From Deltaproteobacteria bacterium (GTDB lineage: Bacteria; SAR324; NAC60-12), in assembly GCA_038150265.1 (NCBI GenBank), contig JAYOTF010000001.1, forward strand, positions 126,690-190,689: 64,000 nt of DNA, given 5' to 3'. The position numbers and the translations under genes are program-made. The notes beneath the pieces are model-generated. The model was not told the origin of the DNA. It made no database searches and saw nothing but the letters and a program-made list of their open reading frames with translations. Position 1 is the first letter of the stretch. Each line of letters begins with the position of its first letter. Positions 16,990 to 52,672 of this stretch are shown in pieces.

Positions 16990-16990
<1 letters not shown>

Positions 16991-31016: not shown

Positions 31017-31018
31017 GC

Positions 31019-34022: not shown

Positions 34023-36608
<2,586 letters not shown>

Positions 36609-36810: not shown

Positions 36811-38871
36811 ATGATCATTGGTGTTGACGTCGGTGGAACCTTTACCGATGTGTTTTTTCTGGATGAAGCCCAGCAGACCATCCGTGTGGCAAAGGTGCCG
36901 TCTACCCCAGCAGACCAGTCCGTCGGGTTTCTGGAGGGCCTGCACGCGCACGCGCCCCAGTTGGCGCAGGTCAAGACGGTGGTGCATGGAACAACCGTTG
37001 GAACCAACGCCCTGCTCAGTCGCGGTGGCGCAAAAACCGGGTTGCTGACCACCGAGGGCTTCCGGGACGTGCTGGAGATGCGCCGGCGAGACCGACCCCA
37101 CACCTGGGGCCTGTGGGGGCAGTATGAGCCCGTGGTTCCGCGGAACCTGCGCCTTGAGGTGCCGGAGCGGGTGCTGGCCGATGGGACCCTTCACACCGAG
37201 GTGGACTTGGAAGCCGTGGAGGCTCAGGTGCAGGCGTTGCTGGAGCAAGGCGTGGAGGCGGTGTCGGTGTTCTTCATCAATGCCTACGCCAATCCGGAAA
37301 ATGAACGCCGCGCTGTGGAGCGCGTCCGGGCGCTTTGGCCCAACGCCCACGTCAGCGCCAGTCATGAGATTCTTCCGGAAATCCGCGAGTTTGAACGCAT
37401 TTCCACCACCACCCTGAACGCCTACCTGCAGCCCCGGGTCAGCCGCTACCTGGAGAACCTGAACCAGGGAATGCGCTCGGAGGGCTTTGAGGGGGAGCTG
37501 CTGATTGTGCAAAGCAACGGCGGAGTGATGAGTGTGAACACGGCAGAGCAGTTTCCGGTGCGGACGGCGCTTTCCGGACCAGCCGCCGGCGTCATTGCCA
37601 GCGCCTACATTGGGGCCGAGGCCGGCTTTCCGAATGTCATCAGCTGCGACATGGGAGGAACCAGCTTCGACGTGTCGCTGGTGAACGGCGGCGAAAGCGC
37701 GCTTGCTGCTCAGACGTCCATCGGCTTCGGCATGGTCGTCCGGACCCCGATGATCCAAATCACCACCATCGGGGCCGGTGGCGGCTCCATTGCGTCGGTT
37801 GACCGGGGCGGCCTGCTCGAAGTGGGACCCGAGTCCGCAGGCTCGGATCCCGGACCCGTGTGTTACGGACTGGGGAACACGCGCCCAACGGTGACGGATG
37901 CGAATGTGGTGCTGGGCCGCATCAATGCAGACCGTCCGATCGGAGGAAAGCTGGACCGACTGGACGTGGAGGCAGCAAAGGCTGCGATTGAGGAACACGT
38001 TGCCGCACCGCTGGGGCTTGACGTGATGGAGGCTGCTGAGGCCATTATCCGAGTGGCCAATTCCAAAATGGCTGGGGCCATTCGTCTGGTTTCCATTGAG
38101 CAGGGCCACAACCCGAGGGAGTTTGCGGCCATGCCCTTCGGTGGCGGAGGCTCTCTGCACGTCTGTGCGATGATCCGGGAAGTGGGCCTCGCCAAGGCGT
38201 TGGTGCCGCGCTACCCCGGGGTGACCAGTGCGCTCGGCTGCGTCATTGCAGACATGCGCCACGACCGGGTCCAGACCTTCAACACCCTGTTGACGGACCT
38301 CAATGAGGCCTCGCTCCAGAACGCCATGGAAGCCTTTGCGCAAGAAGGCGCTCGGCTGCTGCAGGCCTCCGGAGTGGTCTTTGAGGGGCAGGAGGTTCGC
38401 TTTGAACTCGACATGTCCTACCTCGGCCAGACCCACACGGTGGAGGTGCCCATCATCCAGCAGTCGGTCTCCTCCTCCAGCACCACGCTCCGCGTTTCCG
38501 CTTCCCGCATTCAGGACGCCTTTGAATCACGCTATCGTGAAATCTATGGCCGGACCCTGGAAAACCTGCCGATTCGGGTGCTCAACCTCCGGGGGGCGGT
38601 GATTGGGAAGCGTCCCAAGCTCGACCTGACCCTGCTGGCTCCAGACGAAGCGGTTGCTCCGGAAGCCTGCCGCATCGGTGAACGTCCGGTCTGGGTGGAG
38701 GGAGGCTGGCAGACCGCCATCCGTTACGAGCGTCTGCGCCTGCCCATCGGGGCCCAGGTTGCGGGACCGGCCCTCTTTGAGCAACCCGACACGACCATCT
38801 TTCTCGAACCCAACATGACGGCAGAGGTGGACCGCTTTGGCAACCTCATCATTCACCCGGAGGCCCCATGA
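36811..38871 (+). CDS. Hydantoinase/oxoprolinase subunit A (ATP-binding)
   Basis: DVGGTFTD, HGTT, SGPAAG, DMGGTSFD, GAGGGS, GPESAG. Confidence 0.93.
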   Translation: MIIGVDVGGTFTDVFFLDEAQQTIRVAKVPSTPADQSVGFLEGLHAHAPQLAQVKTVVHGTTVGTNALLSRGGAKTGLLTTEGFRDVLEMRRRDRPHTWGLWGQYEPVVPRNLRLEVPERVLADGTLHTEVDLEAVEAQVQALLEQGVEAVSVFFINAYANPENERRAVERVRALWPNAHVSASHEILPEIREFERISTTTLNAYLQPRVSRYLENLNQGMRSEGFEGELLIVQSNGGVMSVNTAEQFPVRTALSGPAAGVIASAYIGAEAGFPNVISCDMGGTSFDVSLVNGGESALAAQTSIGFGMVVRTPMIQITTIGAGGGSIASVDRGGLLEVGPESAGSDPGPVCYGLGNTRPTVTDANVVLGRINADRPIGGKLDRLDVEAAKAAIEEHVAAPLGLDVMEAAEAIIRVANSKMAGAIRLVSIEQGHNPREFAAMPFGGGGSLHVCAMIREVGLAKALVPRYPGVTSALGCVIADMRHDRVQTFNTLLTDLNEASLQNAMEAFAQEGARLLQASGVVFEGQEVRFELDMSYLGQTHTVEVPIIQQSVSSSSTTLRVSASRIQDAFESRYREIYGRTLENLPIRVLNLRGAVIGKRPKLDLTLLAPDEAVAPEACRIGERPVWVEGGWQTAIRYERLRLPIGAQVAGPALFEQPDTTIFLEPNMTAEVDRFGNLIIHPEAP

Positions 38872-39488
38872 AACTGACCCTCTCTCAGGAGCGTCCGGAA
38901 ACGCTGGCGCTGGTGCTGGTGGATCTGCAAAACGACTTCATTCACCCTGAAGGCGCCTACGGTCGTGCCGGCCAGAAGTCGGCGGCCATTGCGGCGCTTC
39001 CCGAACGGCTGCAGCCGTTGGTGGAGGTGGTCCGCCAAAAAGGCGGGTGGATCGTTTCCACGCACTTCACCCTGGTTCCGGGAAAAGGCGGAGCGCCCTT
39101 CATTCTGGATCACCTCAGGCAGCTCCGGCCCTTTCTGGGGAAGGGCGACTTTGCTCCGGGCTCGTGGGGACAGCAGCTGGTGGAGGAGCTTCAGCCTCCG
39201 GACCTGAGCGTTGAGAAGGTGGCGTACAATGCGTTTTACATGAGCCGCCTGGAGTGGGTGCTGCGGCGGGCCGGAGTGGAGGCCCTGCTCTTTTCCGGAA
39301 TTGTCACCAACGGCGGAGTGGCCTCCACGGTTCGGGAAGCACATGTTCGGGACTTCCGGACCGCTGTGTTGAGCGACGGCTGTGGCGCCTTTTCGGAAGA
39401 GACGCACGAGGCGTCCATTCGGGACCTCTCCACCCTCTCCACGATCATGACCTGCGCTGAAGCGAAGCAGGTGCTGGAGGCGGCATGA
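38868..39488 (+). CDS. Isochorismatase-fold protein lacking the catalytic Cys
   Basis: VDLQNDF and VEK present; GIVTNGGVASTVREA where TNxCV is expected. Confidence 0.88.
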   Translation: MKLTLSQERPETLALVLVDLQNDFIHPEGAYGRAGQKSAAIAALPERLQPLVEVVRQKGGWIVSTHFTLVPGKGGAPFILDHLRQLRPFLGKGDFAPGSWGQQLVEELQPPDLSVEKVAYNAFYMSRLEWVLRRAGVEALLFSGIVTNGGVASTVREAHVRDFRTAVLSDGCGAFSEETHEASIRDLSTLSTIMTCAEAKQVLEAA

Positions 39489-40897
39489 GCGTGCTTGCGG
39501 CGTCTGGAGAAGCGTTTGAGGTTCATGTTCCGGTGCTGGTGGTGGGAGCCGGGGCGTGTGGCCTCACGGCCGCATTGGCTGCTGCTGAACAGGGAGCCGA
39601 GGTGCTGGTTCTGGAACGAGATCCGAAGCCCAGTGGTTCCACATCGCTTTCCTCTGGACTCATTCCAGCAGCTGGAACCCGCTGGCAGCAGCACCTGGGG
39701 GTCTCTGACTCGCCGGAGCAGTTTGCCTCCGACATTCAGCACAAGGCGAAGGGGCAGGCAAATCCGAGCCTGGTGGCACGCATGACGACTGAGGCGGGTC
39801 CCACGCTGGAGTGGCTCGCAGCGGCGCATGGGCTTGAGTTTGAGCTGCTGCAAGGGTTCCTCTACCCCGGACACTCGGTACTGCGCATGCACGCGGTTCC
39901 GGAGCACACGGGAACCGCTTTGCTGCAACGCTTGCTCGCAGCCACTCAGGCCCAGCCCATTGACGTGCTCACCGAGGCGACGGTGACGGATTTGTTTGTT
40001 GATGCGCATCAGCGGGTTCGGGGCGTCCGGGTGGCGCGCTCAGATGGTTCGACCGAAACCGTCGGCTGTGATGCGCTTGTGCTGGCGTGCAACGGCTACG
40101 GCGGAAACCCGCAGCTGCTCCAGCGCTTCATTCCGGAACTCGCGGGCATGGAGTACTTTGGGCACACCGGGAATCAGGGAGACGCCGCTTTGTGGGGAGA
40201 AGCCCTGGGCGCCGAGCTGAGCGACATGGGCGCGTTTCAGGGGCACGGCTCGGTGGCGCATCCGCACGGGGTGCTGATCACCTGGGCCTTGATGATGGAG
40301 GGAGGAATTCAGGTCAACCTCGATGGCCAGCGATTTTCCAATGAACACCAGGGGTACTCCGAGCAGTCCATCTCGGTGTGGGCGCAGCCGGATCATCTGG
40401 CATGGAACCTCTACGATGAGCGGCTCCACCAGCTGGGGATGGAGTTTGATGATTACCGCAATGCCGAATCAATGGGCGCCATTCTTCAGGCGGCCGACCT
40501 CCCCGAGCTGGCTCAGGTGACCGGGCTTCCCGAGCCGGCGCTCCGGGAGACGCTGGATGCGGTGCGGGCCTTTCAAGCGGGAGAGGCGACGGACGCCTTT
40601 GGCCGAGACTTTACCACCAAGCCTCCGCTCACGCCGCCGTACCATGCGGTCCGGGTGACCTGTGCCCTCTTTCACACGCAGGGCGGGTTGGTGGTCAATG
40701 ACGAGGCGCGGGTGATGCGGTCCGACGGTTCGGGCCTGCCCAACCTGTTTGCCGGTGGAGGCGCAGCCCAGGGGGTTTCCGGACCTGCCGTGTGGGGGTA
40801 CCTTTCAGGGAATGGCTTGCTGACCGCCGTGACTCTGGGGAGGCTTGCGGGAGTGGCGGCTGCACAGGTGGTCCGAGACGCTTCTGGTGGAGAGTGA
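39485..40897 (+). CDS. FAD-dependent oxidoreductase (flavocytochrome c/TcuA/KstD-like)
   Basis: VVGAGACG, GSTSLSSG, GQRFSNE, HTQGGL, YLSGNGL. Confidence 0.88.
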   Translation: MSVLAASGEAFEVHVPVLVVGAGACGLTAALAAAEQGAEVLVLERDPKPSGSTSLSSGLIPAAGTRWQQHLGVSDSPEQFASDIQHKAKGQANPSLVARMTTEAGPTLEWLAAAHGLEFELLQGFLYPGHSVLRMHAVPEHTGTALLQRLLAATQAQPIDVLTEATVTDLFVDAHQRVRGVRVARSDGSTETVGCDALVLACNGYGGNPQLLQRFIPELAGMEYFGHTGNQGDAALWGEALGAELSDMGAFQGHGSVAHPHGVLITWALMMEGGIQVNLDGQRFSNEHQGYSEQSISVWAQPDHLAWNLYDERLHQLGMEFDDYRNAESMGAILQAADLPELAQVTGLPEPALRETLDAVRAFQAGEATDAFGRDFTTKPPLTPPYHAVRVTCALFHTQGGLVVNDEARVMRSDGSGLPNLFAGGGAAQGVSGPAVWGYLSGNGLLTAVTLGRLAGVAAAQVVRDASGGE

Positions 40898-40978
40898 GCA
40901 GGATTTAACCAAACGTTAACCCGGCTCCAACAAAGCGTTCCTACGATAGAGCTTTTCCCCTAAGCGAAAGGCTCGTCC

Positions 40979-41263
40979 ATGAAAAAGACTGCATACCTGC
41001 TGACGCTGGCCGCCAGCGCACTTCTCCTCTCTGCCTGCAACCAGGCCGGAAAGACGGCCTCCCTGAAGCCCAAAGGCCAGGACGCCTGGTGCCAGGAGCA
41101 TCCGAATTCAGCAGTGTGTCCTCAGGGGCAGGCTGCACTCCAGCAGAAAAATTCCTGGTGCGAAGAGAATCCGATGTCGGCTGTTTGCCCGCAGGGCAAG
41201 GCGGCCGTGGAGAAGAAGGCCAGCTGGTGCGCGGATTACCCCGACTCTGCCGTCTGCTCCTGA
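40979..41263 (+). CDS. Lipoprotein with three WCxxxPxSAVC repeats
   Basis: Lipobox LLLSAC; 69-nt repeat units starting 41087, 41156, 41225. Confidence 0.8.
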   Translation: MKKTAYLLTLAASALLLSACNQAGKTASLKPKGQDAWCQEHPNSAVCPQGQAALQQKNSWCEENPMSAVCPQGKAAVEKKASWCADYPDSAVCS

Positions 41264-42901
41264 TCAGCCAGAAACCAGCCCCAGCTCCTGGTCCCGTTGA
41301 GAGGCTGCAGGGCTCCGCTCAGCGGGGTCACCGTAGCCTCCTCCTCCCGGAGTCTCCAGCCGGAGCCGCTGTCCCTTCTTGAGCTGAATCCCCACCATTT
41401 TGGAGGCCATGGGAGGTTCATGGAATCCGTCTTCCTGCTCATAATAAAACCGGTTGGGCGCCGCAGCGTGCCCGCCGACCACGCCCGGAGGCGCGTACCG
41501 TCCTCGTTCGCCAAACAGGAAGACATCGGCGTGTTCTTCCAGCAGCTCCAGCTCATAGATGGCTCCCAGTCCACCCCGGTGCCTTCCGGGGCCTCCGGAG
41601 TCGGGACGTAGGGCCCACTGCGTGAAGCGGACCGGGTAGGCGGCTTCCAAAATTTCAAGGGGCGGGATCGTGGCTGTGGAGATGGGGGCATTGCCATGAT
41701 TCAGCCCATCGCCTTCCGGGTGCCCCCCGTGTCCGCCTCCGAAGAAGGAAAACATCACCCAGCGGCGCCCGTCCTTGCGGAACCCAGCCAGCGAGAGGGC
41801 ATTGATGGTTCCATACGCACAGCCGTTGGACCGCTCTGGTGCAACCTGGGCAATGGCCTGAAAGACCACGTCAATGACCCGCAAAATGGTCTCGGTGTAT
41901 CCTCCGACCGGTTTTGGCGCCCGCGCATCAAGCAGGCTGCCATCTGGAATGATGAACTCAATGGGCTCCAGCACGCCGGAGTTGGCGGGCACCTCCTGAA
42001 AGAGGTGCTTGAGGGCCACGTAACAGGCGGCAATGGTTGTGGACCGCGAAATGTTGACGGGTCCGGCGCAGGCGGGAGACGTCCGGGAGAAGTCGAGGGT
42101 CATCGTTTCTCCGGAAATCGTCAGGTCGAGTCCCAGCCGGAGGGGTTCATCGCGGATGCCGTCGTTGTCGAGGTAGTCTTCACAGGCAATGGACCCGTCC
42201 GGAAGTTCCTGCAGGTTGGCGCGCATCAGCTGCTCGGCCCGGTTCTTCAGCTCCCGGAAGGCCTGCTGCACCGATTCTGGGCCATGCTCTTCCAACAGGG
42301 TCCGGAGGCGTTTTTCTCCAAGATCCAGGGCATTGAGCTGCCCGTTCAGGTCGCCGTAGAGGCTCCCGGGTTGCCGGGAGTTGCACTGGAGGATGTCAAT
42401 GATGTCCGGGTTGAGGACCCCCTGCTGGATCAGCCGAACCGGTGGGATGTGCATGCCCTCCTGAAAGCTCTCGGTGGCCACTGGGTTGTAGTTGCCCGGG
42501 ACGTTGCCGCCGACGTCATGCCAGTGCCCAACGGAGGCCAGGTAGCAAAACAGCTTTCCGTTGTGATAAAACGGACGGACCAGCTTGAAGTCCGAAAGGT
42601 GCGTCCCGCCTTCATACGGGTCATTGAAGATCCAGGTGTCTCCTTCCTGAATGCCTCCGCGCTCAGCGGACTTGTCGATAACGGCCTTCACGGCAAACGC
42701 CATTGCCCCAACAAATACCGGAAGTCCGGATTTGCCCTGAATCAGCGTTTCGCCGGTGACCGCATCATAGAGGCCGTGAGAGGCATCGTGGGCCTCTGCG
42801 ATGATGGGGTTGAAGGCGCTCCGGAACAAGGTGGCGTCCATTTCATCCGCAATCTGTTCCAGCCGTCCCTTGAGGACCGCGAGCGTAACAGGATCCATCA
42901 T
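41264..42901 (-). CDS. Hydantoinase B/oxoprolinase catalytic subunit
   Basis: NDPYEGGTHLSD, HWHDVGG, DSGGPGRHRGG, TPGGGGYG. Confidence 0.93.
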   Translation of the reverse strand: MMDPVTLAVLKGRLEQIADEMDATLFRSAFNPIIAEAHDASHGLYDAVTGETLIQGKSGLPVFVGAMAFAVKAVIDKSAERGGIQEGDTWIFNDPYEGGTHLSDFKLVRPFYHNGKLFCYLASVGHWHDVGGNVPGNYNPVATESFQEGMHIPPVRLIQQGVLNPDIIDILQCNSRQPGSLYGDLNGQLNALDLGEKRLRTLLEEHGPESVQQAFRELKNRAEQLMRANLQELPDGSIACEDYLDNDGIRDEPLRLGLDLTISGETMTLDFSRTSPACAGPVNISRSTTIAACYVALKHLFQEVPANSGVLEPIEFIIPDGSLLDARAPKPVGGYTETILRVIDVVFQAIAQVAPERSNGCAYGTINALSLAGFRKDGRRWVMFSFFGGGHGGHPEGDGLNHGNAPISTATIPPLEILEAAYPVRFTQWALRPDSGGPGRHRGGLGAIYELELLEEHADVFLFGERGRYAPPGVVGGHAAAPNRFYYEQEDGFHEPPMASKMVGIQLKKGQRLRLETPGGGGYGDPAERSPAASQRDQELGLVSG

Positions 42902-43752
42902 TCGTACCTCTTTCCTTCTTCGAGTAGGGTATCGGTCCCGAGCAGCTCATTGAGCTGGGTAAAGTTGAGCATCTCATCCCGGAACGGTTCTGTGGTGCCA
43001 TGTGTGTGCAGCGAGGCAAAGTAACGCTGGGCCATGTGGGTCAGGGCACGGACGAAGCCTCCGGGGAAGATCACCAGCGAGTACCCGATCTGCTCCAGCT
43101 CAGCGGCAGGCAGCAGCGGCGTCTTGCCCCCTTCTACCATGTTGGCCATGGTGGGAAGGCGGTCTCGGAAGCGGTCGTTGACGAGCCGCATCTGCCCGGT
43201 TGTGTTCAGGGCTTCCACAAACAGCAGGTCCACTCCGGTGGCAACGTAGGCTTCGGCGCGCTCCAGAGCCGCTTCGAATCCCTCCACCGCGACGGCATCG
43301 GTCCGGGCAATGATGAGCGTCTCTTCCGACTGCCGAGCGTCAAGAGCCGCCTGAAGCTTCCCCACCATTTCCCGCTGCGGAACCAGGGTCTTGTCCTTGA
43401 GGTGCCCGCAGCGTTTGGGAAAGGACTGGTCTTCGAGTTGAAGCGCCGAGGCGCCCGCCCGTTCCAGCAGGCGAACGGTCCGCTGCGTGTTGAGGGCGTT
43501 GCCAAATCCGGTGTCGGCATCCACCACCAGCGGAAGGTCGGTCCGCTCCCGGATGAGGCCAACGGTGTCGGCGACTTCCGTGAGCGTCACCAGCCCCAGG
43601 TCCGGACGTCCATGACGGGTGTAGGCGACACTGGCCCCAGAGAGGTAGGCGGCTTCAAATCCGGCCTGTTCCACAAGGACGGCTCCCAGCGCATCGTAAA
43701 TGCCAGGGGCCACCACAATGCCTGCTTCGGAAAAACGGGTCTTCCAGCTCAT
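42898..43752 (-). CDS. Isocitrate lyase/PEP mutase family C-C lyase (dimethylmalate or methylisocitrate lyase-like)
   Basis: PGIYD, YLSGA, DADTGFG, EDQ, KRCGH, ARTDA, NMVEGGKTP. Confidence 0.92.
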   Translation of the reverse strand: MSWKTRFSEAGIVVAPGIYDALGAVLVEQAGFEAAYLSGASVAYTRHGRPDLGLVTLTEVADTVGLIRERTDLPLVVDADTGFGNALNTQRTVRLLERAGASALQLEDQSFPKRCGHLKDKTLVPQREMVGKLQAALDARQSEETLIIARTDAVAVEGFEAALERAEAYVATGVDLLFVEALNTTGQMRLVNDRFRDRLPTMANMVEGGKTPLLPAAELEQIGYSLVIFPGGFVRALTHMAQRYFASLHTHGTTEPFRDEMLNFTQLNELLGTDTLLEEGKRYE

Positions 43753-45526: not shown

Positions 45527-45633
45527 TGCAAACGATTGCGGGATTGGTCAGTATCTTGGTGATCGAATTTTGACACACGAAACCCGGAGCGCACAAGGCC
45601 TCCGGTTTTTCTTGACCCTCTGGAGGCCAATTC

Positions 45634-47013
45634 ATGGAAATGCACACCCCTTCTTACCTGAAGGAATTGACGGAGTTTCTGGTTCAGACCACCCCTCAGG
45701 ACATTGATGCCGCTGCCTGGGAGCGAGCCCGCTGGGTCCTGGCAGACAGCATTGCCGCCATTGCCGGAGGGGCAGCGGAGCCCGAGGTGCAGGAACTGAC
45801 GCGGCGTCTGGTTCCGGAAGCATCAGGCCCTGCGACGGTGATCGGAACACCACTCCGGACAGACCTGCGAACCGCAGCACTGGTCAATGGCACCGCTGGC
45901 ACCTTTCTGGAGCTTGACGAGGGCAACCAGTTTGGGCGTGGGCATCCGGGCATTCATGTGGTGCCGGCTCTGCTGGCCCTGGCGGAGCAACAAGGCTCCG
46001 GAGGCGCCGAGGTGCTGCGGGCGCTGATCCTTGGCTATGAAGTGGGCACCCGCATCGGAATGGCCTGCAAGCTCCGGATGTCGATGCACCCGCACGGCAC
46101 CTGGGGCACCGTGGGCGCCGCCGTTAGCGTGGGCGTGCTCGCCGGGTGCAGCGCGGCTGAGTTGGGGACCCTCATCAACATCAGCTCCTCACTGGGGCTG
46201 GCGACCAGCCGCAAGACGATGCTGGAAGGAGGCACTGTCCGGAACACCTTTGCTGGCGTGAGCAACCAGATGGGCCTGCTGGCTCATGACCTCCTGCGGT
46301 CGGGCTTTACGGGAGAGCAGGATGGCCTCACGACGGTCTTCGGGAGCGTCGTCTCCGATGAGTTTGACCCGGGTGAGATGACCCGGGAGCTGGGAACCCG
46401 CTGGGAGATCGCCCGGAATTACTTCAAGCTGCACGCCTGCTGCCGCTACAACCATGGCGCCCTGGACGCGCTGGACCAGATCCTCCAGGCGCATGCGGTG
46501 GCTCCGGAAACGGTGACGGACGTCCGGGTGGAGACCTACTCGCTTGCGGCACAGCTGGCCGACCGCCACCCCCAGAACACCCTCGCCGGCAAGTTCTCGG
46601 TTCCCTTTGCCATTGCGACCACGCTGACCAACCAAAGCAGTGGCGTCGCCAGCTTCACATGGGACCAGATTCGGCGTGAGCAGGTTCAGCGCCTGGCGGA
46701 CAAGGTGACCGTTGTGGAGGATCCGGAGCTGACGGCGCTGATGCCGGACTTCCGACCGGCTCGGGTTTCCCTCACGTTGCAGGATGGCACCCGGCTACAG
46801 GCGGAAACCCGAACCAATCGCGGAGACACCGAGGACCCCTACACCCCTGAGGAGCTCCGGGAGAAGTTTGTCAACCTGACTCAGCGCGTGTGGCCCCTGG
46901 CCGACTGCGCTTCGCTGCACCAGCGGCTCCTCCAGATTGAGGAGCAGCCTGACCTGGGGGCGTTGATGGCCGACCTCCGGAAGCTGGCACAGGCCAAGGG
47001 GGCTCATGCTTGA
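45634..47013 (+). CDS. MmgE/PrpD family protein
   Basis: AALVNG, ELDEG, GHPG, HPHGTWG, FKLHACC, KFSVPF. Confidence 0.92.
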   Translation: MEMHTPSYLKELTEFLVQTTPQDIDAAAWERARWVLADSIAAIAGGAAEPEVQELTRRLVPEASGPATVIGTPLRTDLRTAALVNGTAGTFLELDEGNQFGRGHPGIHVVPALLALAEQQGSGGAEVLRALILGYEVGTRIGMACKLRMSMHPHGTWGTVGAAVSVGVLAGCSAAELGTLINISSSLGLATSRKTMLEGGTVRNTFAGVSNQMGLLAHDLLRSGFTGEQDGLTTVFGSVVSDEFDPGEMTRELGTRWEIARNYFKLHACCRYNHGALDALDQILQAHAVAPETVTDVRVETYSLAAQLADRHPQNTLAGKFSVPFAIATTLTNQSSGVASFTWDQIRREQVQRLADKVTVVEDPELTALMPDFRPARVSLTLQDGTRLQAETRTNRGDTEDPYTPEELREKFVNLTQRVWPLADCASLHQRLLQIEEQPDLGALMADLRKLAQAKGAHA

Positions 47014-47389
47014 TGCTGCCGAGCTGGAGGCGCTGGTTGAAGCCTACTTTGCTGCGGTTGACGCCAAGGACTGGTCTCGCCTCCGGCAGGTTCTTGCACC
47101 TGAGTGTTCCCTCCGGATCCAGACGCACCAGGTGGAGCGAGTCGGACGGGACCACGCGGTCCGGAATGTGTTTGCCGCGCTGTTTGAGCGCTATGCTGGC
47201 ATCTGGCATGGCGACTTCCGGCATGTCCCTGATCCGGCGCACCAGCGGATTGCGTCGCAGTTTCAGGTCCGGAACACGTTGGCCGACGGCTCGGAGCGGT
47301 TCAAGAGCAACTGCAACTTCTTCACAGTCCGGGAGGGACGCTTTGTGGAGATCGACGTCTACATGAGCGGCGACAACACGCTATACTGA
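47006..47389 (+). CDS. SnoaL/NTF2-like protein
   Basis: VEAYFAAVDAKDW...LAPE pattern; overlaps the prpD-like stop. Confidence 0.8.
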   Translation: MLDAAELEALVEAYFAAVDAKDWSRLRQVLAPECSLRIQTHQVERVGRDHAVRNVFAALFERYAGIWHGDFRHVPDPAHQRIASQFQVRNTLADGSERFKSNCNFFTVREGRFVEIDVYMSGDNTLY

Positions 47390-47390
47390 T

Positions 47391-48092
47391 TCAAAGCCCC
47401 AGGTACGAGCGCTTCAGTTCCGGATCAGCAGCAAGCTCGCGGGCGGATCCGGAAAGCGCCACCACGCCGTTTTCAATCACATACGCCCGGTGAGCCAGCT
47501 CGAGTGACTGCACGACGTTTTGCTCCACCAGCAGGACGCTGACGCCTTGCTGGTTGATGGTGGCAATGAGTTTGAACATCTCCTCCACCAGCAGGGGCGA
47601 CAGCCCGAGGGAGGGCTCATCGAAGATCAGCAGCTTGGGCTCAGCCATGAGGCTCCGGCCAATGGCCACCATCTGCTGCTCGCCTCCGGAGAGGGTTCCG
47701 GCCAGTTGAGCGCGCCGTTCCCGGAGCTTCGGGAAGCTGGAAAAGACGCGTTCCAGGTTCTGGGCGCGGTTCGGCTTTCCCCGTCGGTAACTTCCCATCT
47801 CCAGATTTTCCAACACCGTCAGATTCGGAAACAGCTTCCGACCTTCCGGAACCTGCAGGAGGCCGAGGTCCACAATGCGGTTGGGGCGCCAGCCCGTGAT
47901 GTCCTGGCCCTCAAAGCGAATGGTGCCCTGAAAGGGACGGTAGAGGCCGCAGACGTTGTGATTGAGGGTGGTCTTGCCCACGCCGTTGCTGCCGAGGACC
48001 GCGACGATTTCTCCTGGCCGCAGGTTGAGGTCGATGCCGCGGAGGACGGTGACGTGCCCGTAGCCTGCGTGGAGTCCGGTGACTTCAAGCAT
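47391..48092 (-). CDS. livF: HAAT-type ABC transporter ATPase (LivF-like)
   Basis: GSNGVGKT, VPEGR, LSGGEQQM, DEPSLGL, VEQN. Confidence 0.92.
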   Translation of the reverse strand: MLEVTGLHAGYGHVTVLRGIDLNLRPGEIVAVLGSNGVGKTTLNHNVCGLYRPFQGTIRFEGQDITGWRPNRIVDLGLLQVPEGRKLFPNLTVLENLEMGSYRRGKPNRAQNLERVFSSFPKLRERRAQLAGTLSGGEQQMVAIGRSLMAEPKLLIFDEPSLGLSPLLVEEMFKLIATINQQGVSVLLVEQNVVQSLELAHRAYVIENGVVALSGSARELAADPELKRSYLGL

Positions 48093-48831
48093 GCGGCTCC
48101 CTGGCGTTCAGGCGTTCAGCAGCGCCGTGTCCGAGGTAGGCTTCCACCACATGCGGGTTGGAGGCCACTTCCCTGGGCACTCCGGCGGCAATGAGTTCGC
48201 CGTTGTTGAGGACGTAGGTGTAATCGGAGAGGCTCATCACCGCCTGCATGACGTGTTCAATCAGAAAGATGGTCACCCCGGCGTCTCGGATGCTGCGGAT
48301 GGTGGTGAGGATTTCCTCGACTTCGCTGGGGTTGAGCCCCGCCATGACTTCGTCCAGCAGCAGGAGCTTCGGCTGGGTCGCCAGGGCCCGGGCGAGTTCC
48401 AGGCGCTTGCGTCCGGCAACAGTCAGGTCGTCTGCCGGAGCATCCAGGCTCATGCGCATGCCCACGCGTTGCGCGATGGCCTCGGCGTGCTCCGAAGCCT
48501 TCTGGGGGTTGTCGGTGTGGTGGTAGGCCCCCACCATGATGTTTTCACGGATGCTGAGCTTGGCAAACGGCTGAGTGATCTGAAAGGTCCGGACCATTCC
48601 CAACTCGCAAATCTTGTGAGGCTTGAGGCCAACCAACGATTCCCCCTGCAGGAGGATCTTGCCCGAGTTGGGTTTGAGGAACCCGGCGACCATGGCAAAG
48701 AGGGTCGTCTTGCCTGCGCCGTTGGGGCCAATGAGGGAGACGATCTTCCCTTCCGGAACCTCAAGGGACACGTCGGAGACCGCTTTCAGGCCTCCGAAGC
48801 TCTTGGACACCTGTTCAACCTTGAGCATCAT
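48085..48831 (-). CDS. livG: HAAT-type ABC transporter ATPase (LivG-like)
   Basis: FGGL, GPNGAGKTT, RTFQ, LLDE, IEH, AYLG. Confidence 0.92.
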   Translation of the reverse strand: MMLKVEQVSKSFGGLKAVSDVSLEVPEGKIVSLIGPNGAGKTTLFAMVAGFLKPNSGKILLQGESLVGLKPHKICELGMVRTFQITQPFAKLSIRENIMVGAYHHTDNPQKASEHAEAIAQRVGMRMSLDAPADDLTVAGRKRLELARALATQPKLLLLDEVMAGLNPSEVEEILTTIRSIRDAGVTIFLIEHVMQAVMSLSDYTYVLNNGELIAAGVPREVASNPHVVEAYLGHGAAERLNAREPHA

Positions 48832-49774
48832 CCCCCTTGGGTTTGCGTTTGAAGAGGCCGATCAGCCCATCGGGCAGGAAGCCGATGATCAGCACCAGGA
48901 TGACGCCGTAAACGATGAGGCTCAGGCCGGGGGTGTCGATGTAGTGCCGGGAGATTTCGTTGATGGTGTGCAGCACGAGTGAGCCGATGAACGGACCCAA
49001 CACGGTGCCCATGCCGCCAATGATCGAGACGAGCAGCATTTCCACCGACTTGTCCACCCCATAGGCAATGTAGGGGTCGATGTAGAGGTAGTACTGGGCG
49101 TAAAAGGTCCCTCCGGCTGCGCCAATGCCTCCTGAGATCATGATCGCCTTCATCTTGTGCCCGAAGGTATCGACGCCCAGCGCTTCAGCCGCGTCTTCAT
49201 TCTCACGGACGGCCATCAGGCGTGAGCCAAAGCGGGTCCGCTCGAGCCGGAGGGCAATGGCGACGGAGATCACGAAGAAGACGAGGATGACGTAGTAGAA
49301 GCCCGTCCGGCCTTCAAACTGAAAATTCAGGGGGTGCTGGTCCAGCGGAATGTAAATGCCCATGCCCGCCTGGGTGAACTCGACGGAGTTGGAGATGATC
49401 CGGAAGGCTTCGGCAAAGGCAAGGGTGATGAGCGCAAAGTACGACCCCCGGAGCCCGAAGCGGAAGCTGAGGAAGCCGACAAAGGCCCCGACCAGCATGC
49501 CCATGAGGATGCCGGCGACCAAACCGATCCACGGATTGATGCCGTAAGTGACGTGCAGGATGGACGAGGTGTAGGCCCCGGTTCCAAAGAAGAGCACGCT
49601 GCCAAAGGAAAACTGCCCCGCGTAGCCGCCCAGGATGTTCCAGGACTGCCCAAGGGTGGCCGAGTAGAGCACAATGATGGCGAAGCTGATGAGGAATTCG
49701 GAGCCGACCACCCACGGCAGCAGCACCAGAATCAGCACTCCCGCCAGCAGGAGACGTGGGTGGTGTGCGGTCAT
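48815..49774 (-). CDS. livM: HAAT-type ABC permease (LivM-like)
   Basis: GYAGQFSFG, YFALITL, VRENEDAAEALG. Confidence 0.9.
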   Translation of the reverse strand: MTAHHPRLLLAGVLILVLLPWVVGSEFLISFAIIVLYSATLGQSWNILGGYAGQFSFGSVLFFGTGAYTSSILHVTYGINPWIGLVAGILMGMLVGAFVGFLSFRFGLRGSYFALITLAFAEAFRIISNSVEFTQAGMGIYIPLDQHPLNFQFEGRTGFYYVILVFFVISVAIALRLERTRFGSRLMAVRENEDAAEALGVDTFGHKMKAIMISGGIGAAGGTFYAQYYLYIDPYIAYGVDKSVEMLLVSIIGGMGTVLGPFIGSLVLHTINEISRHYIDTPGLSLIVYGVILVLIIGFLPDGLIGLFKRKPKGDDAQG

Positions 49775-50643
49775 GCCTTCGCTCCAAAGAGTCCGGTGGG
49801 ACGGAAGAGGAGGATGAGCACAAAGATCAGTGGAACCCCGATCTGCCCCAGGCTTTCTCCCAGGAACAGCCCTCCGATGGATTCGGTGATGCCGATGATG
49901 AAGCCTCCCACCAGTGCGCCGACGAAGCTGCCCATTCCCCCCAGCACCACGGTGGTGAAGGCAATGACGACAAACACGTGCCCGATGGTGGGGGTGACGT
50001 AGAAGGACGGCATGAGCAGGCAGGCTGCTGCGCCGAGGCAGGCGATCCCGATGCCGTAGCTCATCGCAAAAATGTGATCCACGTCAATGCCCATCAGGCG
50101 TGCGCCCACGCGTTCCTTGGCCACGGCCCGGATGGCCTTCCCCAGGTCCGTCTTGGCCATCAGGGCCCAGAGGGCCAGGCCAATGACAATGGAGGCGCCA
50201 AAGGAGATCATCTTCGGAAGCGTCACAAGCGCTGGACCAATCTCAATCATGTCATAGGCATACGACAGGTTGAGGGTTTGGGTGTCGGCCTTGAAGAAGA
50301 ACAGCGCCGCGTTTTCAAACACCACACTCAGCCCCAGGGTGACGAGCAGGATGTTCTGGTCCTTGCCCTTGGCCAGCTTGCCGATCACGTGGCGGTACAG
50401 CAGGTACCCAAACGCAAAGGATCCGGGAATGACCACCACAAGCGCCAGGTAGGGGTCGACCCCCCACTTGGAGAAGAGGAAGAAGACCGCATACATGGCC
50501 AGCATCAACAGGGCTCCATGAGCGAAGTTGATGATGTGCAGCACGCCGTAGATCAGGGTGAGTCCCAGGGCCAGCAGCGAATAGATGGCTCCGAACATCA
50601 GCCCATTGATCAACGCCGTGGTAAGAATCACGGGTTCGAACAT
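49771..50643 (-). CDS. livH: HAAT-type ABC permease (LivH-like)
   Basis: LGLTLIYG, INFAHG, GKAIRAVA, VLGGMG. Confidence 0.92.
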   Translation of the reverse strand: MFEPVILTTALINGLMFGAIYSLLALGLTLIYGVLHIINFAHGALLMLAMYAVFFLFSKWGVDPYLALVVVIPGSFAFGYLLYRHVIGKLAKGKDQNILLVTLGLSVVFENAALFFFKADTQTLNLSYAYDMIEIGPALVTLPKMISFGASIVIGLALWALMAKTDLGKAIRAVAKERVGARLMGIDVDHIFAMSYGIGIACLGAAACLLMPSFYVTPTIGHVFVVIAFTTVVLGGMGSFVGALVGGFIIGITESIGGLFLGESLGQIGVPLIFVLILLFRPTGLFGAKA

Positions 50644-50659
50644 GAAGACCGGGAACAGG

Positions 50660-50680
50660 TTCCGGGGGCCGGCCCCGGAA
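50660..50680. other. Intercistronic stem-loop after the binding-protein gene
   Basis: TTCCGGGG-GCCGG-CCCCGGAA. Confidence 0.5.
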
Positions 50681-50690
50681 GTTCAGAAGG

Positions 50691-51935
50691 TTAGGCTGGT
50701 CGAGGGAAGATCGGGCCCGCCGAGGCAAACTCCGATGGGAAGACCACCTGCGCATCCACCTTGCCTCCAGACTTTTGAGCCTGAATGGCAACGGCCCGGG
50801 AGCCTTCGTTTTGCCCGTTCACCATCTTGGTGGGGCCATACGGCATGATGAGCGGATCAAGGGTGCTGCTGGCGAGCGCCTCGTTGACGGCATCCGGATC
50901 GGTGGTGCCTGCCCGCTCAAACGCGTCGGCCAGGAGGCGGATGGAGTTGTAGGTGCAGTAGACCTCAAAGGTAAAGTACCCGCCCTGCCCTTCAACCATC
51001 TGACGCATCTCCTGCGCCTTGGGGGAGTTCGGGTTGTACCAGTGGTTGAAGTCGATCATGTTTTCCGCCACTTCCGGCTGCTCGTTGATGAACTTGAAGT
51101 TGAAGCCTCCTCCCAGCACCGAGTAGCTGGCCATGAACGGCACCCGTTGCTGTCGCAGGGTCTGAGCCAGCAGGATGTACTCGCCCGGGTAGTTGACCGG
51201 GATGATGACGTCCGGCTTCATGGAACGCACCCGCAGGGCGATGTTGTCGAAGTTCCGGGTGGGGTTGGCGTGCTTGATGGTGTCCTTGACGTCCCAGCCC
51301 GTCTCCTTCAGCTTGCTGGAGAGCAGCTTTGCGGTGCCTGTGCCGAATTCGGATTCTTCGTGGATGATCACCGCGCTTCCTGCCGGAGAACCGGCGGCCT
51401 TGTTGATCAGGTTCAGGTTGTCCACCGCGTCGCTGGTGATGCGTCCGTAGCCGTCGGCCATCCGGAAGACGTTCTTCAGGCCACGCTGGACGATGCGGTC
51501 GGAAACGCCGACGTCAATGGAAAACGGAAGGCTGTACTTGGCTGCCGCCTGAGTGGCAGCCAGGCAGACGGCACTCTGGTAGCAACCCGTGAAGGCGTGC
51601 ACCCCTGCTTCGGCCATCTTCTCGACTTCGGCAGAGCCGATCTCGGGCTTGCCCTGGGTATCCCCCAGCACCGCTTCCAGCTTGGCGCCAAGGGACTTGA
51701 TCCCTCCGGCCGCGTTGATGTCGTTGATGGCCATCTGTCCGCCGAGTCGCGACTGGGCTCCCGGGTAGGCGAGCCCTCCGGATGCCGGGTGGATGAAGCC
51801 GATTTTCACCGTGTTGGATTGAGCCTTGAGGATCGCCGGGAAGCCGGTGATGCCAGTGGCCAGAGCCGTCCCTGCAGCGGCCTGGGCCAGCAGACGACGT
51901 CGGGTGATTTCGGTGGCGGAAGTGCGTTTCTTCAT
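50691..51935 (-). CDS. ABC substrate-binding protein (LivJ/K fold), Tat-exported
   Basis: ITRRRLL twin-arginine signal; INAAGGI motif. Confidence 0.9.
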   Translation of the reverse strand: MKKRTSATEITRRRLLAQAAAGTALATGITGFPAILKAQSNTVKIGFIHPASGGLAYPGAQSRLGGQMAINDINAAGGIKSLGAKLEAVLGDTQGKPEIGSAEVEKMAEAGVHAFTGCYQSAVCLAATQAAAKYSLPFSIDVGVSDRIVQRGLKNVFRMADGYGRITSDAVDNLNLINKAAGSPAGSAVIIHEESEFGTGTAKLLSSKLKETGWDVKDTIKHANPTRNFDNIALRVRSMKPDVIIPVNYPGEYILLAQTLRQQRVPFMASYSVLGGGFNFKFINEQPEVAENMIDFNHWYNPNSPKAQEMRQMVEGQGGYFTFEVYCTYNSIRLLADAFERAGTTDPDAVNEALASSTLDPLIMPYGPTKMVNGQNEGSRAVAIQAQKSGGKVDAQVVFPSEFASAGPIFPRPA

Positions 51936-52105
51936 GGTTCTTTCCTACTGAAGGTTGCGACCAGTCGCGAGATCGGGCTTTGCAGGCCCGTCGAAAACGG
52001 TTAAATCATGTTAGGCACGATTTTTCCGTGTTGACCAGCAGTTTTTTTCAGAGCCCAGGAAAAAGTAGCGGGCGATTCTTTCTGAACCTCAACGAGTTTT
52101 CGATC

Positions 52106-52669
52106 ATGCCAGTCATTCAAGCCACGCTCATCGAAGGGTACGATGAAGCGACGCGTCGCCACCTCTGTGAACGCCTAACAGACGCGGTGATGGGATGCAT
52201 CGCGGCCCCTCCGGACGGGGTGACCATCTTGCTGAACGAGGTTCCGCCGGCCAACTACATGCGGGGGCGTCAGTCTCGGGTTCCGGGTCCGCCCAGCCCC
52301 GGACCTGTCGCATGCGTCCGGGCGTACCTTGATGCGATGGAGCGTCGGGAGCTGGAAGCCGCCCAGCAGTTTTTGGCCCCGGAGTTCACCATGACCTTTC
52401 CGGGAGGAGTGGAGTTGACGCGTCCGGAAGAGGTGGTGCGTTGGGGAAAGGAGCGGTACCGCAGCATCCGCAAAACCTACGACGCTTGGGACGAGTCGTT
52501 CAATGCCCAGGGCTGGGTGGTGAGCTGTCAGGGGACCCTTTCCGGAGAGTGGCCAGACGGAACGCCCTTCTCGGGAATCCGCTTTGTCGATCGCTTTCAG
52601 GGGGTGGGCCGCCTGCTGCACCGCCAGCAGGTCTGGAACGACCTGGCGGAGGTCCGGAGCCGTTTGTGA
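52106..52669 (+). CDS. 4-oxalocrotonate tautomerase-family domain fused to a SnoaL-like domain
   Basis: M-P-V-I start (catalytic Pro1 pattern); second domain VRAYLDAMERR...FVDRF. Confidence 0.82.
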   Translation: MPVIQATLIEGYDEATRRHLCERLTDAVMGCIAAPPDGVTILLNEVPPANYMRGRQSRVPGPPSPGPVACVRAYLDAMERRELEAAQQFLAPEFTMTFPGGVELTRPEEVVRWGKERYRSIRKTYDAWDESFNAQGWVVSCQGTLSGEWPDGTPFSGIRFVDRFQGVGRLLHRQQVWNDLAEVRSRL

Positions 52670-52672
52670 GGG

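Follow-up and report, generated by a model that had tools for sequence, protein, structure and literature searches.

A candidate catabolic pathway for a carboxylated cyclic imide or lactam in a fifteen-gene cluster from a SAR324-lineage genome

Much of the system considered here – a cluster of 15 genes in a stretch of 64,000 nucleotides (the window; positions 126,690 to 190,689 of contig JAYOTF010000001.1, assembly GCA_038150265.1) from a Deltaproteobacteria bacterium of the SAR324 lineage – is familiar, piece by piece, from described pathways. The tail of the methylcitrate cycle takes 2-methylcitrate by way of 2-methyl-cis-aconitate and 2-methylisocitrate to pyruvate and succinate. In the nicotinate fermentation of Eubacterium barkeri, DmdAB hydrates dimethylmaleate and Dml cleaves dimethylmalate; in the creatinine/N-methylhydantoin pathway an ATP-dependent N-methylhydantoinase works with N-carbamoylsarcosine amidase, an enzyme of the isochorismatase fold. 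Cyclic-imide metabolism runs from imide to half-amide to dicarboxylate plus ammonia: two reports describe BpIH, 61% identical to PuuE, as hydrolysing 3-isobutylglutarimide (PMC11424739), and Aspergillus HxnM as opening a piperidine-2,6-dione (PMC9304392). A third report presents the binding protein SAR11_0655 with bound L-pyroglutamate (structure 8WCH; dissociation constant <5 nM) as belonging to a new class of ABC transporter (PMC11485210).

With the methylcitrate tail the cluster shares an MmgE/PrpD-family protein, an aconitase-family hydratase and a PrpB-like lyase with the KRCGH motif, magnesium ligands and methyl pocket. It differs in having neither methylcitrate synthase nor propionyl-CoA synthetase, in a tail fed by ring-opening enzymes, in PrpB- and PrpD-like proteins that score under the equivalog cutoffs and in changed distal residues in the lyase; the chemistry that we propose would also be one carbon longer, ending in pyruvate and glutarate. 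The parallel with DmdAB and Dml is a LeuCD-type hydratase for a substituted maleate followed by a lyase of the isocitrate lyase (ICL) family releasing pyruvate, but the upstream nicotinate enzymes are missing and the second product is probably a dicarboxylate, not propionate. As in the creatinine pathway, an ATP-dependent HyuAB pair is accompanied by an isochorismatase-fold second enzyme (Iso), but Iso has glycine in place of the cysteine and its product would pass to hydratase and lyase, not to sarcosine oxidation. The logic of cyclic-imide metabolism (BpIH; HxnM/HxnN of A. nidulans) would be shared too, and variants of the cluster in Burkholderia plantarii and in sphingomonads fill the equivalent slot with PuuE-like CE4 proteins and a Cys amidase, whereas the window uses HyuAB and the Cys-less Iso; moreover, the known cyclic-imide systems feed the tricarboxylic acid cycle or 2-hydroxyglutarate directly and lack the flavoenzyme, LeuCD and lyase module. 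Lastly, SAR11_0655 and the cluster share a HAAT-family binding protein, with a cyclic amide bearing a carboxylate as ligand in the SAR11 case (PMC11485210), but SAR11 couples it with the 5-oxoprolinase PxpABC and not with HyuAB or a C–C cleavage module.

We put at roughly 55% the probability that the 15 genes work as a single pathway breaking down a small cyclic imide or lactam with a carboxylate group. What can be observed directly is which genes are present, their synteny, the exchange of modules and the residues at the active sites; from these we infer every chemical step and the substrate. The outline drawn by the first-pass annotation – uptake, opening of the ring of a cyclic imide or lactam, formation of a substituted maleate, then its hydration and C–C cleavage – is favoured by the comparative evidence. 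The enzyme families are all known; what is new is their combination, the Cys-less Iso partner and a flavoenzyme with a Tyr/Phe/Tyr active site. A literature search, covering openly licensed papers with bioRxiv supplements aside, returned no description or characterised pathway for this gene set, nothing on bacterial catabolism of hematinic acid or maleimides, and nothing on cyclic imides beyond the two imidase papers (PMC11424739, PMC9304392).

Co-occurrence and gene order in other genomes

Evidence that the genes belong together comes foremost from other genomes. A scan anchored on the PrpD-like protein, one genome per species, gave 178 pattern matches, of which 128 were confirmed and the best 80 loci used; ten plasmid regions, from plasmid and chromid searches anchored on the flavoenzyme and the lyase, complete the comparison set. 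Open reading frames (ORFs) of the loci were clustered, recurrent families were named by Pfam and NCBIfam, and gene maps were drawn. By tblastn of the window proteins (at least half of the query covered), relatives of the flavoenzyme are present in 62 of the best 80 loci, of the ABC components in 48–57, of leuC in 32, of the lyase in 26, of hyuB in 24, of hyuA and iso in 19 each, of snoaL in 10 and of the tautomerase fusion in five; the genes flanking the cluster, by the same measure, recur in two (pyruvate phosphate dikinase, PPDK) and one (MsbA). Counted by family, the 80 loci hold the flavoenzyme in 60, a transporter in 68, a ring-opener in 56, an amidase-type protein in 40, a C–C lyase in 47 and LeuCD in 33. 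Flavoenzyme, ring-opener, amidase-type protein and C–C lyase stand together in 24 of the 80; where the flanks reach their full 21 kb, the figure is 20 of 42 loci. On plasmids, at least 27 of 53 flavoenzyme records have the lyase within 12 kb, a lower bound obtained by cross-matching by hand against 60 listed of 138 lyase records; RefSeq gives the genes in the plasmid records generic product names throughout.

Gene order is equally telling. In Bosea, leuD and leuC lie on one strand and a GntR gene on the other, followed by genes for the substrate-binding protein, two permeases, two ATPases, PrpD, lyase, HyuB, HyuA, Iso and the flavoenzyme (FAD), which form one operon from the binding protein on. 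Roseomonas has this order without LeuCD. Azospirillum oryzae reads GntR–ABC–lyase–hyuB–hyuA–iso–FAD–leuC–leuD, without PrpD; Variovorax reads ABC–leuCD–hyuBA–iso–FAD–lyase; and in Sulfitobacter TRAP–leuDC–GntR is divergent from tautomerase–hyuB–hyuA–iso–lyase–FAD. What are separate units in the window are thus one or two operons, under a HutC-type GntR gene, in these five genera, from which we conclude that the genes belong together. Pfam searches of 41 and 61 neighbour ORFs of representative loci yielded no further conserved family.

The most prosaic explanation is that operons with nothing in common have become neighbours here by chance. An arrangement in five alternating transcription units that lack a regulator is what might be expected of such an accident, but hyuA and hyuB, the halves of one enzyme, sit in two convergent units and so tie those units together, and the fused operons of at least five other genera contradict it outright. 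Since the same families recur together in other genomes, the grouping goes far beyond chance, and we find a coincidence of neighbours hardly credible. The first-pass annotation had staked its proposal of a single pathway on the genes keeping company elsewhere; they do so in at least five other genera and in 20 of the 42 full-flank loci. Its remark that the cluster has no regulator is right for the window and does not extend to the relatives, 32 of 80 of which carry a HutC-type GntR gene.

The set is widespread; carriers comprise marine and plant-associated Alpha- and Betaproteobacteria, Desulfobacterota, haloarchaea and a SAR324-related genome, and their habitats are plant-associated, algal-associated, saltern and sediment.

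Nested modules and exchangeable slots

The relatives form a nested series. Cupriavidus EM10 has leuC–leuD–lyase–GntR only. Paraburkholderia largidicola has ABC–leuCD–hyuBA–iso–lyase, without flavoenzyme and without PrpD; the flavoenzyme is added in Azospirillum, Variovorax and Sulfitobacter, and then PrpD in Roseomonas, Bosea and the window. At the other extreme, the only companions of the lyase in Roseivivax are a tricarboxylate (TTT) transporter and GntR, and on a plasmid of a leaf Comamonadaceae its partners are a TauD-type dioxygenase and the binding protein of a TTT system. The nesting marks hydratase and lyase as a common tail, HyuAB and Iso as an upstream ring-opening unit, and flavoenzyme and PrpD as dispensable additions; read in this way, it suggests the order of the pathway steps. 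The MmgE/PrpD protein and the flavoprotein, which had been counted as members of the cluster, are indeed present, but as accessories missing from some complete operons: the PrpD-like gene is lacking from the otherwise complete operons of Azospirillum, Variovorax, Sulfitobacter and Paraburkholderia.

A second pattern is the replacement of whole slots. Sphingomonad loci carry MFS–prpD–FAD, leuDC, GntR, a CoA-transferase and a protein like 3-hydroxy-3-methylglutaryl-CoA (HMG-CoA) lyase, then IsoB – a paralogue of Iso that has the cysteine – and a pair of CE4 genes of PuuE type. The B. plantarii plasmid has an MFS gene, two PuuE-like genes and IsoB divergent from GntR–leuC–leuD–FAD–lyase. Desulfobacterota and Haloferax volcanii pHV4 have FAD–ABC–prpD(–prpD), IsoB, an Amidohydro_1 protein of TRZ/ATZ type and leuCD–CoA-transferase–HMG-CoA-lyase-like; in some loci of this type a SucCD-like ligase and a CitE-like lyase form the tail instead. 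PuuE-like genes occur in 10 of the 80 loci and on the B. plantarii plasmid, each time with the Cys-bearing IsoB, and the window itself has none. The HMG-CoA-lyase-like protein passes a subfamily model (305 bits, cutoff 246). The Chloroflexus (R)-citramalyl-CoA lyase belongs to the same family and works with a class III CoA-transferase. All three tails – LeuCD with a PrpB-like lyase, LeuCD with CoA-transferase and HMG-CoA-lyase-like protein, and thiokinase with CitE-like lyase – are routes by which an alkyl-malate can be cleaved to a 2-oxo acid and an acid or acyl-CoA.

Some variants deserve record in their own right. The Haloferax volcanii pHV4 locus (L087, 570870-588090), a complete archaeal version next to hutU, contains leuDC, the HMG-CoA-lyase-like gene, CoA-transferase, amidohydrolase, a Cys-isochorismatase, an LLM flavin oxidoreductase, NTF2, FAD and ABC genes, two PrpD genes and IclR. 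In Tistrella mobilis pTM1 and a Mesorhizobium, two tandem genes of the Asp/Glu-racemase family, matched by no NCBIfam model, replace HyuAB and Iso beside prpD–lyase–tautomerase–FAD. Four loci from Desulfobacterota and related metagenome-assembled genomes (MAGs; L002, L016, L022 and L045) hold three to six MmgE/PrpD paralogues each, a local radiation. The window has a stand-alone gene of the HMG-CoA-lyase-like family far from the cluster (Table 1), the family that forms the alternative tail in related clusters.

Active sites, products and substrate

HyuA and HyuB are full length (Pfam coverage 1-290/291 and 1-519/519). The nearest NCBIfam model to both is caprolactamase (548.2 and 288.2 bits, under cutoffs of 1000), and in the PDB HyuB matches 6yra_B, a caprolactamase-type 'hydantoinase' (2.9e-71), and N-methylhydantoinase 7hk5 (3.2e-70). 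The acetophenone carboxylase subunit models are also matched (330 and 134 bits; PDB 5l9w, 4.4e-37), and on that basis HyuAB might be an ATP-dependent ketone carboxylase of the acetone or acetophenone type, its beta-keto acid feeding the hydratase and lyase. We consider this very unlikely: both subunits score much higher with the caprolactamase models, HyuB lies much further from the acetophenone and acetone carboxylases than from the N-methylhydantoinase and caprolactamase structures, the extra carboxylase subunits are absent, and the imidase-type hydrolases that take the place of HyuAB elsewhere argue for hydrolysis.

The partner of HyuAB is altered. Aligned to TrtA and 3kl2, Iso keeps Asp19 and Lys117, and the position of the catalytic cysteine is Gly150, within GIVTNGGV; the Asp–Lys–Cys triad of isochorismatase-like cysteine hydrolases (CSHase, NicF, RutB, BiuH) is therefore incomplete. 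Glycine stands at this position in 18 of 21 members of the Iso family, window included (the remaining three have cysteine), and in all four further HyuAB-linked copies, from Azospirillum, Roseomonas, Sulfitobacter and Paraburkholderia. IsoB has cysteine in 15 of 15 proteins, as do the isochorismatase-fold copies of B. plantarii and Haloferax, which lack HyuAB; in 17 loci HyuA and IsoB never coincide, and the Cys-less Iso is always paired with hyuAB. Many other polar residues are invariant, so Iso is probably still an enzyme, and we regard the Cys-less HyuAB partner as a new sub-type with a seemingly altered catalysis (Cys to Gly). True isochorismatases such as PhzD and EntB presumably lack the cysteine as well. 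Furthermore, 2,3-dialkylmaleamic acids shed their amine through intramolecular catalysis; for such a substrate a nucleophile in Iso would be unnecessary.

The relationships of Iso raise the possibility of a ureide ring, a carboxylate of dihydroorotate, hydantoin or dihydropyrimidine type. Here the flavoenzyme would resemble dihydroorotate dehydrogenase and HyuAB an N-methylhydantoinase, and Iso, like RutB or N-carbamoylsarcosine amidase, would take a product of ureido-acrylate type. The best NCBIfam matches of Iso are RutB and biuret hydrolase (a search of the ESM Atlas gave only generic isochorismatase and cysteine hydrolase clusters), HyuB is as near to N-methylhydantoinase as to caprolactamase, the cluster regulators of relatives are HutC-like, and dihydropyrimidinase/allantoinase-like, CN_hydrolase and hydantoin-racemase-like genes occur together in some related loci (L004, L007, L016 and L028). 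Yet aspartate- or oxaloacetate-type products would need no LeuCD, PrpD or lyase, Iso lacks the cysteine used by RutB, BiuH and CSHase, and the flanks conserve no genes for handling urea or carbamate; a ureide substrate is decidedly unlikely.

The flavoenzyme aligns over its whole length with the flavocytochrome c3 (Fcc3) fumarate reductases (1.2e-50) and urocanate reductase UrdA (3.6e-46), and shares the FAD_binding_2 fold with these and with tricarballylate dehydrogenase TcuA. Equivalents of Fcc3 His365 and Thr377 are kept (H254, T266), but R402, H504 and R544, the arginine of NRLGGN, are replaced by Y291, F396 and Y439, and Glu378 and Arg381 by Trp and Met; haem and FMN-binding domains are lacking, and the TcuA score (166.8) is under its cutoff of 369. 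None of Y291, F396, H397 and Y439 varies in any of the 60 homologues (the window protein and 59 from the loci). We take H365, R402, H504 and R544 to be substrate-binding and catalytic residues of Fcc3; without the Arg/His set the flavoenzyme cannot hold a 1,4-dicarboxylate of fumarate type as Fcc3 does. More likely it desaturates beside a single carboxylate or a ring carbonyl, and it could act either on the ring, turning a succinimide into a maleimide, or on a propionate side chain, in the opposite direction to urocanate reductase. The rebuilt dicarboxylate site makes this, to judge by the alignment, a further new enzyme sub-type. A possible likeness of Tyr291, Tyr439 and Ser441 to the catalytic residues of 3-ketosteroid dehydrogenase was not used as evidence. 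The first-pass annotation had listed an isochorismatase-fold protein and a flavoprotein oxidoreductase: both exist, without the catalytic cysteine in the one and the fumarate-binding Arg and His residues in the other.

A key issue is what the tail releases. The lyase, whose K-R-C-G-H, previously noted, is confirmed by alignment, is closest to PrpB (1o5q, 1.3e-55; Dml 3fa3, 7.9e-44) but does not reach the cutoff of the prpB model TIGR02317 (290.5 against 354.4 bits). It retains the magnesium ligands, R158, E188, N210 and R241, and at PrpB positions 186, 234 and 236 has F, I and P, where the ICL of E. coli has W, F and T. Among 28 cluster lyases the KRCGH loop, magnesium ligands and methyl pocket (F186, L234, P236) are kept in 25–28; P236 is present in 26, and position 234 is isoleucine in 25 and leucine in three. 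The F186/L234/P236 pocket of PrpB presumably takes the methyl group of pyruvate, and its retention therefore points to pyruvate as a product. Of T212, R241 and R270, which we take to surround the distal carboxylate of succinate in PrpB, the cluster lyases keep only R241 (26 of 28), and the changes T212V, F214G and R270F are near-invariant (V212 in 27, F270 in 26 of the 28); to judge from these residues the distal site is remodelled.

In the window the lyase adjoins a LeuCD-type hydratase, and a MmgE/PrpD protein stands across a divergent gap. The nearest structure to the latter is iminodisuccinate (IDS) epimerase 2hp0 (1.8e-30); identity to E. coli PrpD is 20%, and model NF042438 gives 38.8 bits against a cutoff of 950. 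PrpD and LeuCD stand in for each other (Roseomonas, Azospirillum), on which grounds the PrpD-like protein may be an alternative hydratase; an epimerase or isomerase is equally possible. Among candidate markers of specificity the LeuD loop was discarded: the Lys-Ser of the window is not kept among close relatives.

The pairing of a two-subunit aconitase-family hydratase with an adjacent ICL/PEP-mutase-family lyase had earlier been likened to DmdAB and Dml, and the cluster could in principle be the tail of an E. barkeri-type nicotinate pathway; the LeuD model is even named 'LeuD/DmdB family', and Dml is among the matches of the lyase. The likeness stands as analogous chemistry and as adjacency of hydratase and lyase, but membership of that pathway does not. 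Domains of nicotinate dehydrogenase, 6-hydroxynicotinate reductase, enamidase, the B12-dependent 2-methyleneglutarate mutase and methylitaconate isomerase are absent from the window and from the conserved neighbours of the 80 loci, the lyase is nearer to PrpB than to Dml, and transporters and accessory genes indicate a carboxylated substrate and a dicarboxylate product. We regard a nicotinate tail as extremely improbable.

For the second product the B. plantarii plasmid is informative. Its cluster is an island between IS6 and IS481 elements, and behind the lyase gene, in the same orientation, come genes for a porin, the beta and alpha subunits of electron-transfer flavoprotein (ETF), glutaryl-CoA dehydrogenase (PDB 3gnc, 1.8e-220; human GCDH, 1.3e-171) and a CoA-transferase that scores highest with the succinate-glutarate CoA-transferase model (542 bits against 318 for the runner-up; cutoff 750). 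This combination suggests glutarate as co-product of the lyase. The window has its own gcdH, 72% identical to the B. plantarii copy, 6.6 kb from the cluster and beside an Ldh_2-family dehydrogenase gene; it could serve the product of the cluster or lysine/pipecolate catabolism. By tblastn over 88 loci a close gcdH copy was found only in the window and the B. plantarii locus, and on Azospirillum replicons gcdH lies hundreds of kilobases from the cluster; the glutarate argument is thus single-case evidence.

As to what enters the pathway, the nearest PDB structure to the periplasmic binding protein is 8WCH (6.6e-34, 120.9 bits), the next entry reaching 3.6e-13: SAR11_0655 leads the Leu/Ile/Val binders by 20 orders of magnitude. 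Elsewhere the transporter slot is filled by TRAP (Sulfitobacter, in Roseobacter versions) or, in the lyase-only locus of Roseivivax, by a TTT system. An L-pyroglutamate-binding relative here and TRAP or TTT transporters there together point to a cyclic amide with a carboxylate.

They also lend colour to a lactam alternative, in which an amino acid would be the source of the substrate, a substituted lactam of pyroglutamate type: the flavoenzyme would form an enamide, HyuAB open the lactam as a 5-oxoprolinase does, and Iso hydrolyse the enamine to a 2-oxo acid and ammonia before LeuCD and the lyase act. Besides the ligand of the binding protein's relative, the HyuAB family includes ATP-dependent lactamases, and the tautomerase and SnoaL proteins suit enamine/imine shifts. 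Iso, with Asp and Lys but no cysteine, has the constitution of a true isochorismatase such as PhzD or EntB, and an enamine is the nitrogen analogue of the enol ether of isochorismate. But the enamine route yields a 2-oxo acid and not the cis-alkene dicarboxylate that LeuCD- and PrpB-type enzymes need, the substitution of an imidase-type enzyme and Cys amidase for HyuAB and Iso fits a passage from imide through half-amide to acid, and the Paraburkholderia operon, which has no flavoenzyme, still carries HyuAB and Iso. On balance we think this version unlikely.

The pathway for a carboxylated cyclic imide or lactam that we envisage would run as follows. The HAAT ABC system would import the ring acid, and the flavoenzyme, in an optional step, would remove two hydrogens beside a carbonyl or carboxylate, either in the ring (succinimide- to maleimide-type) or in a propionate side chain. 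HyuAB would then open the ring at the expense of ATP, and the Cys-less Iso would help to free the nitrogen as ammonia, leaving a cis-alkene tricarboxylate (a 2-methyl-3-carboxyalkyl-maleate). Water would be added by the LeuCD-type hydratase, the MmgE/PrpD protein or both, and the PrpB-like lyase would split the alkyl-malate into pyruvate and a dicarboxylic acid that is probably glutarate. Double bonds in side-branch substrates may be shifted by the tautomerase-NTF2 and SnoaL proteins.

A tentative and on the whole doubtful candidate for the substrate is hematinic acid imide or dihydrohematinic acid imide, compounds left by the decay of tetrapyrroles. The first of them, 3-(2-carboxyethyl)-4-methylmaleimide, arises from haem, bilins and coproporphyrin-type rings; the dihydro compound is its saturated form, from the reduced ring D of chlorophylls; both are classical monopyrrole products of haem/bilin oxidation and of chlorophyll ring D. 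The fit lies, first, in a methyl group (pyruvate), a carboxyethyl group (glutarate, a homoaconitase-like hydratase, an enlarged distal pocket) and the imide itself; secondly, in a saturated variant with stereocentres (the flavoenzyme, and the racemase- and PrpD-like genes); and thirdly, in dialkyl substitution, with its need of ATP and not of a nucleophile. Were this correct, the flavoenzyme would desaturate the succinimide; HyuAB would spend ATP because 2,3-dialkylmaleimides resist opening; the Cys-less Iso would exploit the spontaneous intramolecular hydrolysis of dialkylmaleamates; the homoaconitase-like LeuCD would hydrate a 'methyl-cis-homoaconitate'; the remodelled lyase would yield pyruvate and glutarate; and the tautomerase-NTF2, SnoaL and racemase-like genes would handle ethylidene/vinyl isomers and stereoisomers.

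Several points weigh against the imide-or-lactam pathway as set out. Imide hydrolysis generally needs no ATP, and an Iso without a nucleophilic cysteine is no classical amidase. The ligand of the binding protein's characterised relative is a lactam and no imide, and that relative matches, in bits, only moderately. The flavoenzyme is near-universal in the loci, though an already unsaturated imide would not need one; it occurs with PrpD and SnoaL without a ring-opener or lyase within 10 kb (L008, L014 and L015), and Tistrella has PrpD, lyase, tautomerase and flavoenzyme but neither HyuAB nor Iso, which leaves the flavoenzyme step ambiguous. The Amidohydro_1 protein of Desulfobacterota and Haloferax is of a deaminase type and not a known imidase. 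The glutarate link rests on one plasmid, given the distance of gcdH in Azospirillum and the possible role of the window copy in lysine catabolism. Finally, every equivalog NCBIfam match is below cutoff, and in the cluster only family and subfamily models of LeuC and LeuD were passed.

Locus architecture, origin and significance

The 15 genes are tightly packed (Table 1). Same-strand junctions overlap by 1–17 nt – hyuA/iso and iso/flavoenzyme by 4 nt each, and the contiguous leuC, leuD and lyase genes by 1–4 nt – and only ahead of the binding-protein gene is there a gap, of 47 nt; between convergent units lie 366 and 1 bp. The domains that the first-pass annotation had named, including a full HAAT ABC importer of five genes, are all found by Pfam where it had placed them, and its hyuA start is borne out by the GAGGAA ribosome site ahead of the ATG. 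The true start of leuD is Met49 of a longer ORF, and the start chosen for the tautomerase fusion gives a protein beginning MPVIQ, with an N-terminal catalytic Pro1 and the Tautomerase domain at residues 1-54. Two antisense ORFs, without a Pfam family match, are shadow ORFs.

Table 1. Features of the cluster and of other parts of the window (positions in the window; units are the transcription units of the cluster)
Feature	Positions	Strand	Unit	Evidence or remark
dnaN (beta sliding clamp)	12353-13468	+		in-frame TAA at 12719-12721 and 12752-12754
gyrB	14567-16990	+
HMG-CoA-lyase-like (HMGL-like) gene, stand-alone	19571-20461	-
Soluble NiFe hydrogenase set, four genes	29700-33859	-		just upstream of the PPDK gene
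hyuA, hydantoinase/oxoprolinase A-type subunit, ATP-binding half of a cyclic-amide hydrolase	36811-38871	+	1	Pfam Hydant_A_N, Hydantoinase_A, Hydant_A_C, E 5e-95
iso, isochorismatase-fold protein	38868-39488	+	1	Pfam Isochorismatase, 4.7e-38
FAD_binding_2 flavoenzyme, soluble fumarate-reductase/urocanate-reductase-like fold, altered active site	39485-40897	+	1	PDB 1qo8 1.2e-50; 6t85 3.6e-46
hyuB, hydantoinase B/oxoprolinase-type subunit	41264-42901	-	2	Pfam Hydantoinase_B, 4.5e-169
Antisense (shadow) ORF	41696-43024	+
PrpB-like C–C lyase, ICL/PEP-mutase family, KRCGH motif	42898-43752	-	2	Pfam PEP_mutase/ICL; NCBIfam, PDB, alignment
Antisense (shadow) ORF	43000-43788	+
leuD-like small subunit, aconitase-family hydratase	43749-44246	-	2	Pfam Aconitase_C; NCBIfam LeuD/DmdB family, 170 bits (cutoff 108.95)
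leuC-like large subunit, aconitase-family hydratase	44246-45526	-	2	Pfam Aconitase, 1.4e-92; NCBIfam homoaconitate hydratase family, 441.7 bits (cutoff 385.7)
Divergent intergenic region, leuC / prpD-like gene	45527-45633			107 bp; presumed promoters
MmgE/PrpD-family protein	45634-47013	+	3	Pfam MmgE_PrpD_N and _C
SnoaL/NTF2-like small protein	47006-47389	+	3	Pfam SnoaL_2, 4.3e-10
HAAT ABC importer, five genes together	47391-51935	-	4
HAAT importer ATPases	47391-48092, 48085-48831	-	4	Pfam ABC_tran (both); NCBIfam LivF-, LivG-like, under cutoffs
HAAT importer permeases	48815-49774, 49771-50643	-	4	Pfam BPD_transp_2 (both); NCBIfam LivM-, LivH-like, under cutoffs
Periplasmic substrate-binding protein	50691-51935	-	4	Pfam Peripla_BP_6
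Divergent intergenic region, binding-protein gene / tautomerase gene	51936-52105			170 bp
Tautomerase (Pro1) fused to NTF2/SnoaL-like domain	52106-52669	+	5	Pfam Tautomerase and DUF4440/SnoaL_2
gcdH with Ldh_2-family dehydrogenase gene	58170-60488	-		gcdH at 59295-60488

Neither flank is related to the cluster: by Pfam and NCBIfam, PPDK lies upstream and an MsbA-like exporter downstream. Pfam detected no helix-turn-helix or other regulator domain within 36.8-52.7 kb, and consensus scans of 36500-52800 were uninformative, with three promoter-like sites (1.7 expected), 14 terminator-like ones (13.4 expected) and nothing above chance in the promoter scan of the gap between leuC and the prpD-like gene. 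When 16 proteins were scanned against NCBIfam no specific (equivalog) model was reached at cutoff; those passed are four family or subfamily models, for LeuC and LeuD, and a hypothetical-equivalog MsbA-related model, for the flanking exporter.

The tautomerase-NTF2 fusion has a full-length solved relative, a 186-residue 'Tautomerase' (9MUA/9MUP, 1.1e-51), for which the literature search found no paper; a solved structure without a publication suggests that the family is apparently under study. With the first gene of the Sulfitobacter operon the fusion shares 44% identity, with its Tistrella counterpart 33%. The SnoaL gene adjoins prpD or the flavoenzyme gene in 9–10 of the 80 loci.

As to how the cluster came to be here, the GyrB of the window is 67% identical to proteins of SAR324-cluster MAGs (other relatives, 92% and 82%), whereas the cluster proteins share 60–77% identity with counterparts in marine Alphaproteobacteria, for example Pelagibius and Thalassobaculaceae. 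From this contrast the cluster was probably acquired horizontally.

Two features elsewhere in the window may be recorded. The dnaN gene has two in-frame TAA codons, read-through of which would give a full-length clamp; TAA is the ordinary stop in 8 of 43 window genes, so dnaN looks like a pseudogene or an assembly error and not like recoding. The soluble NiFe hydrogenase set consists of a large subunit, an Oxidored_q6 small subunit, an NAD-binding/FeS subunit and a 4Fe-4S subunit.

Among the carriers are Azospirillum, Sulfitobacter and Haloferax volcanii with pHV4, organisms that can be cultured and manipulated genetically, which makes the question of the substrate directly testable. To our knowledge, the stage of the global pigment cycle at which monopyrrolic end-products are consumed has no known enzymes. 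Should the cluster act on an imide derived from tetrapyrroles, it would account for the return to metabolism of nitrogen and carbon from the end-products of chlorophyll and haem.

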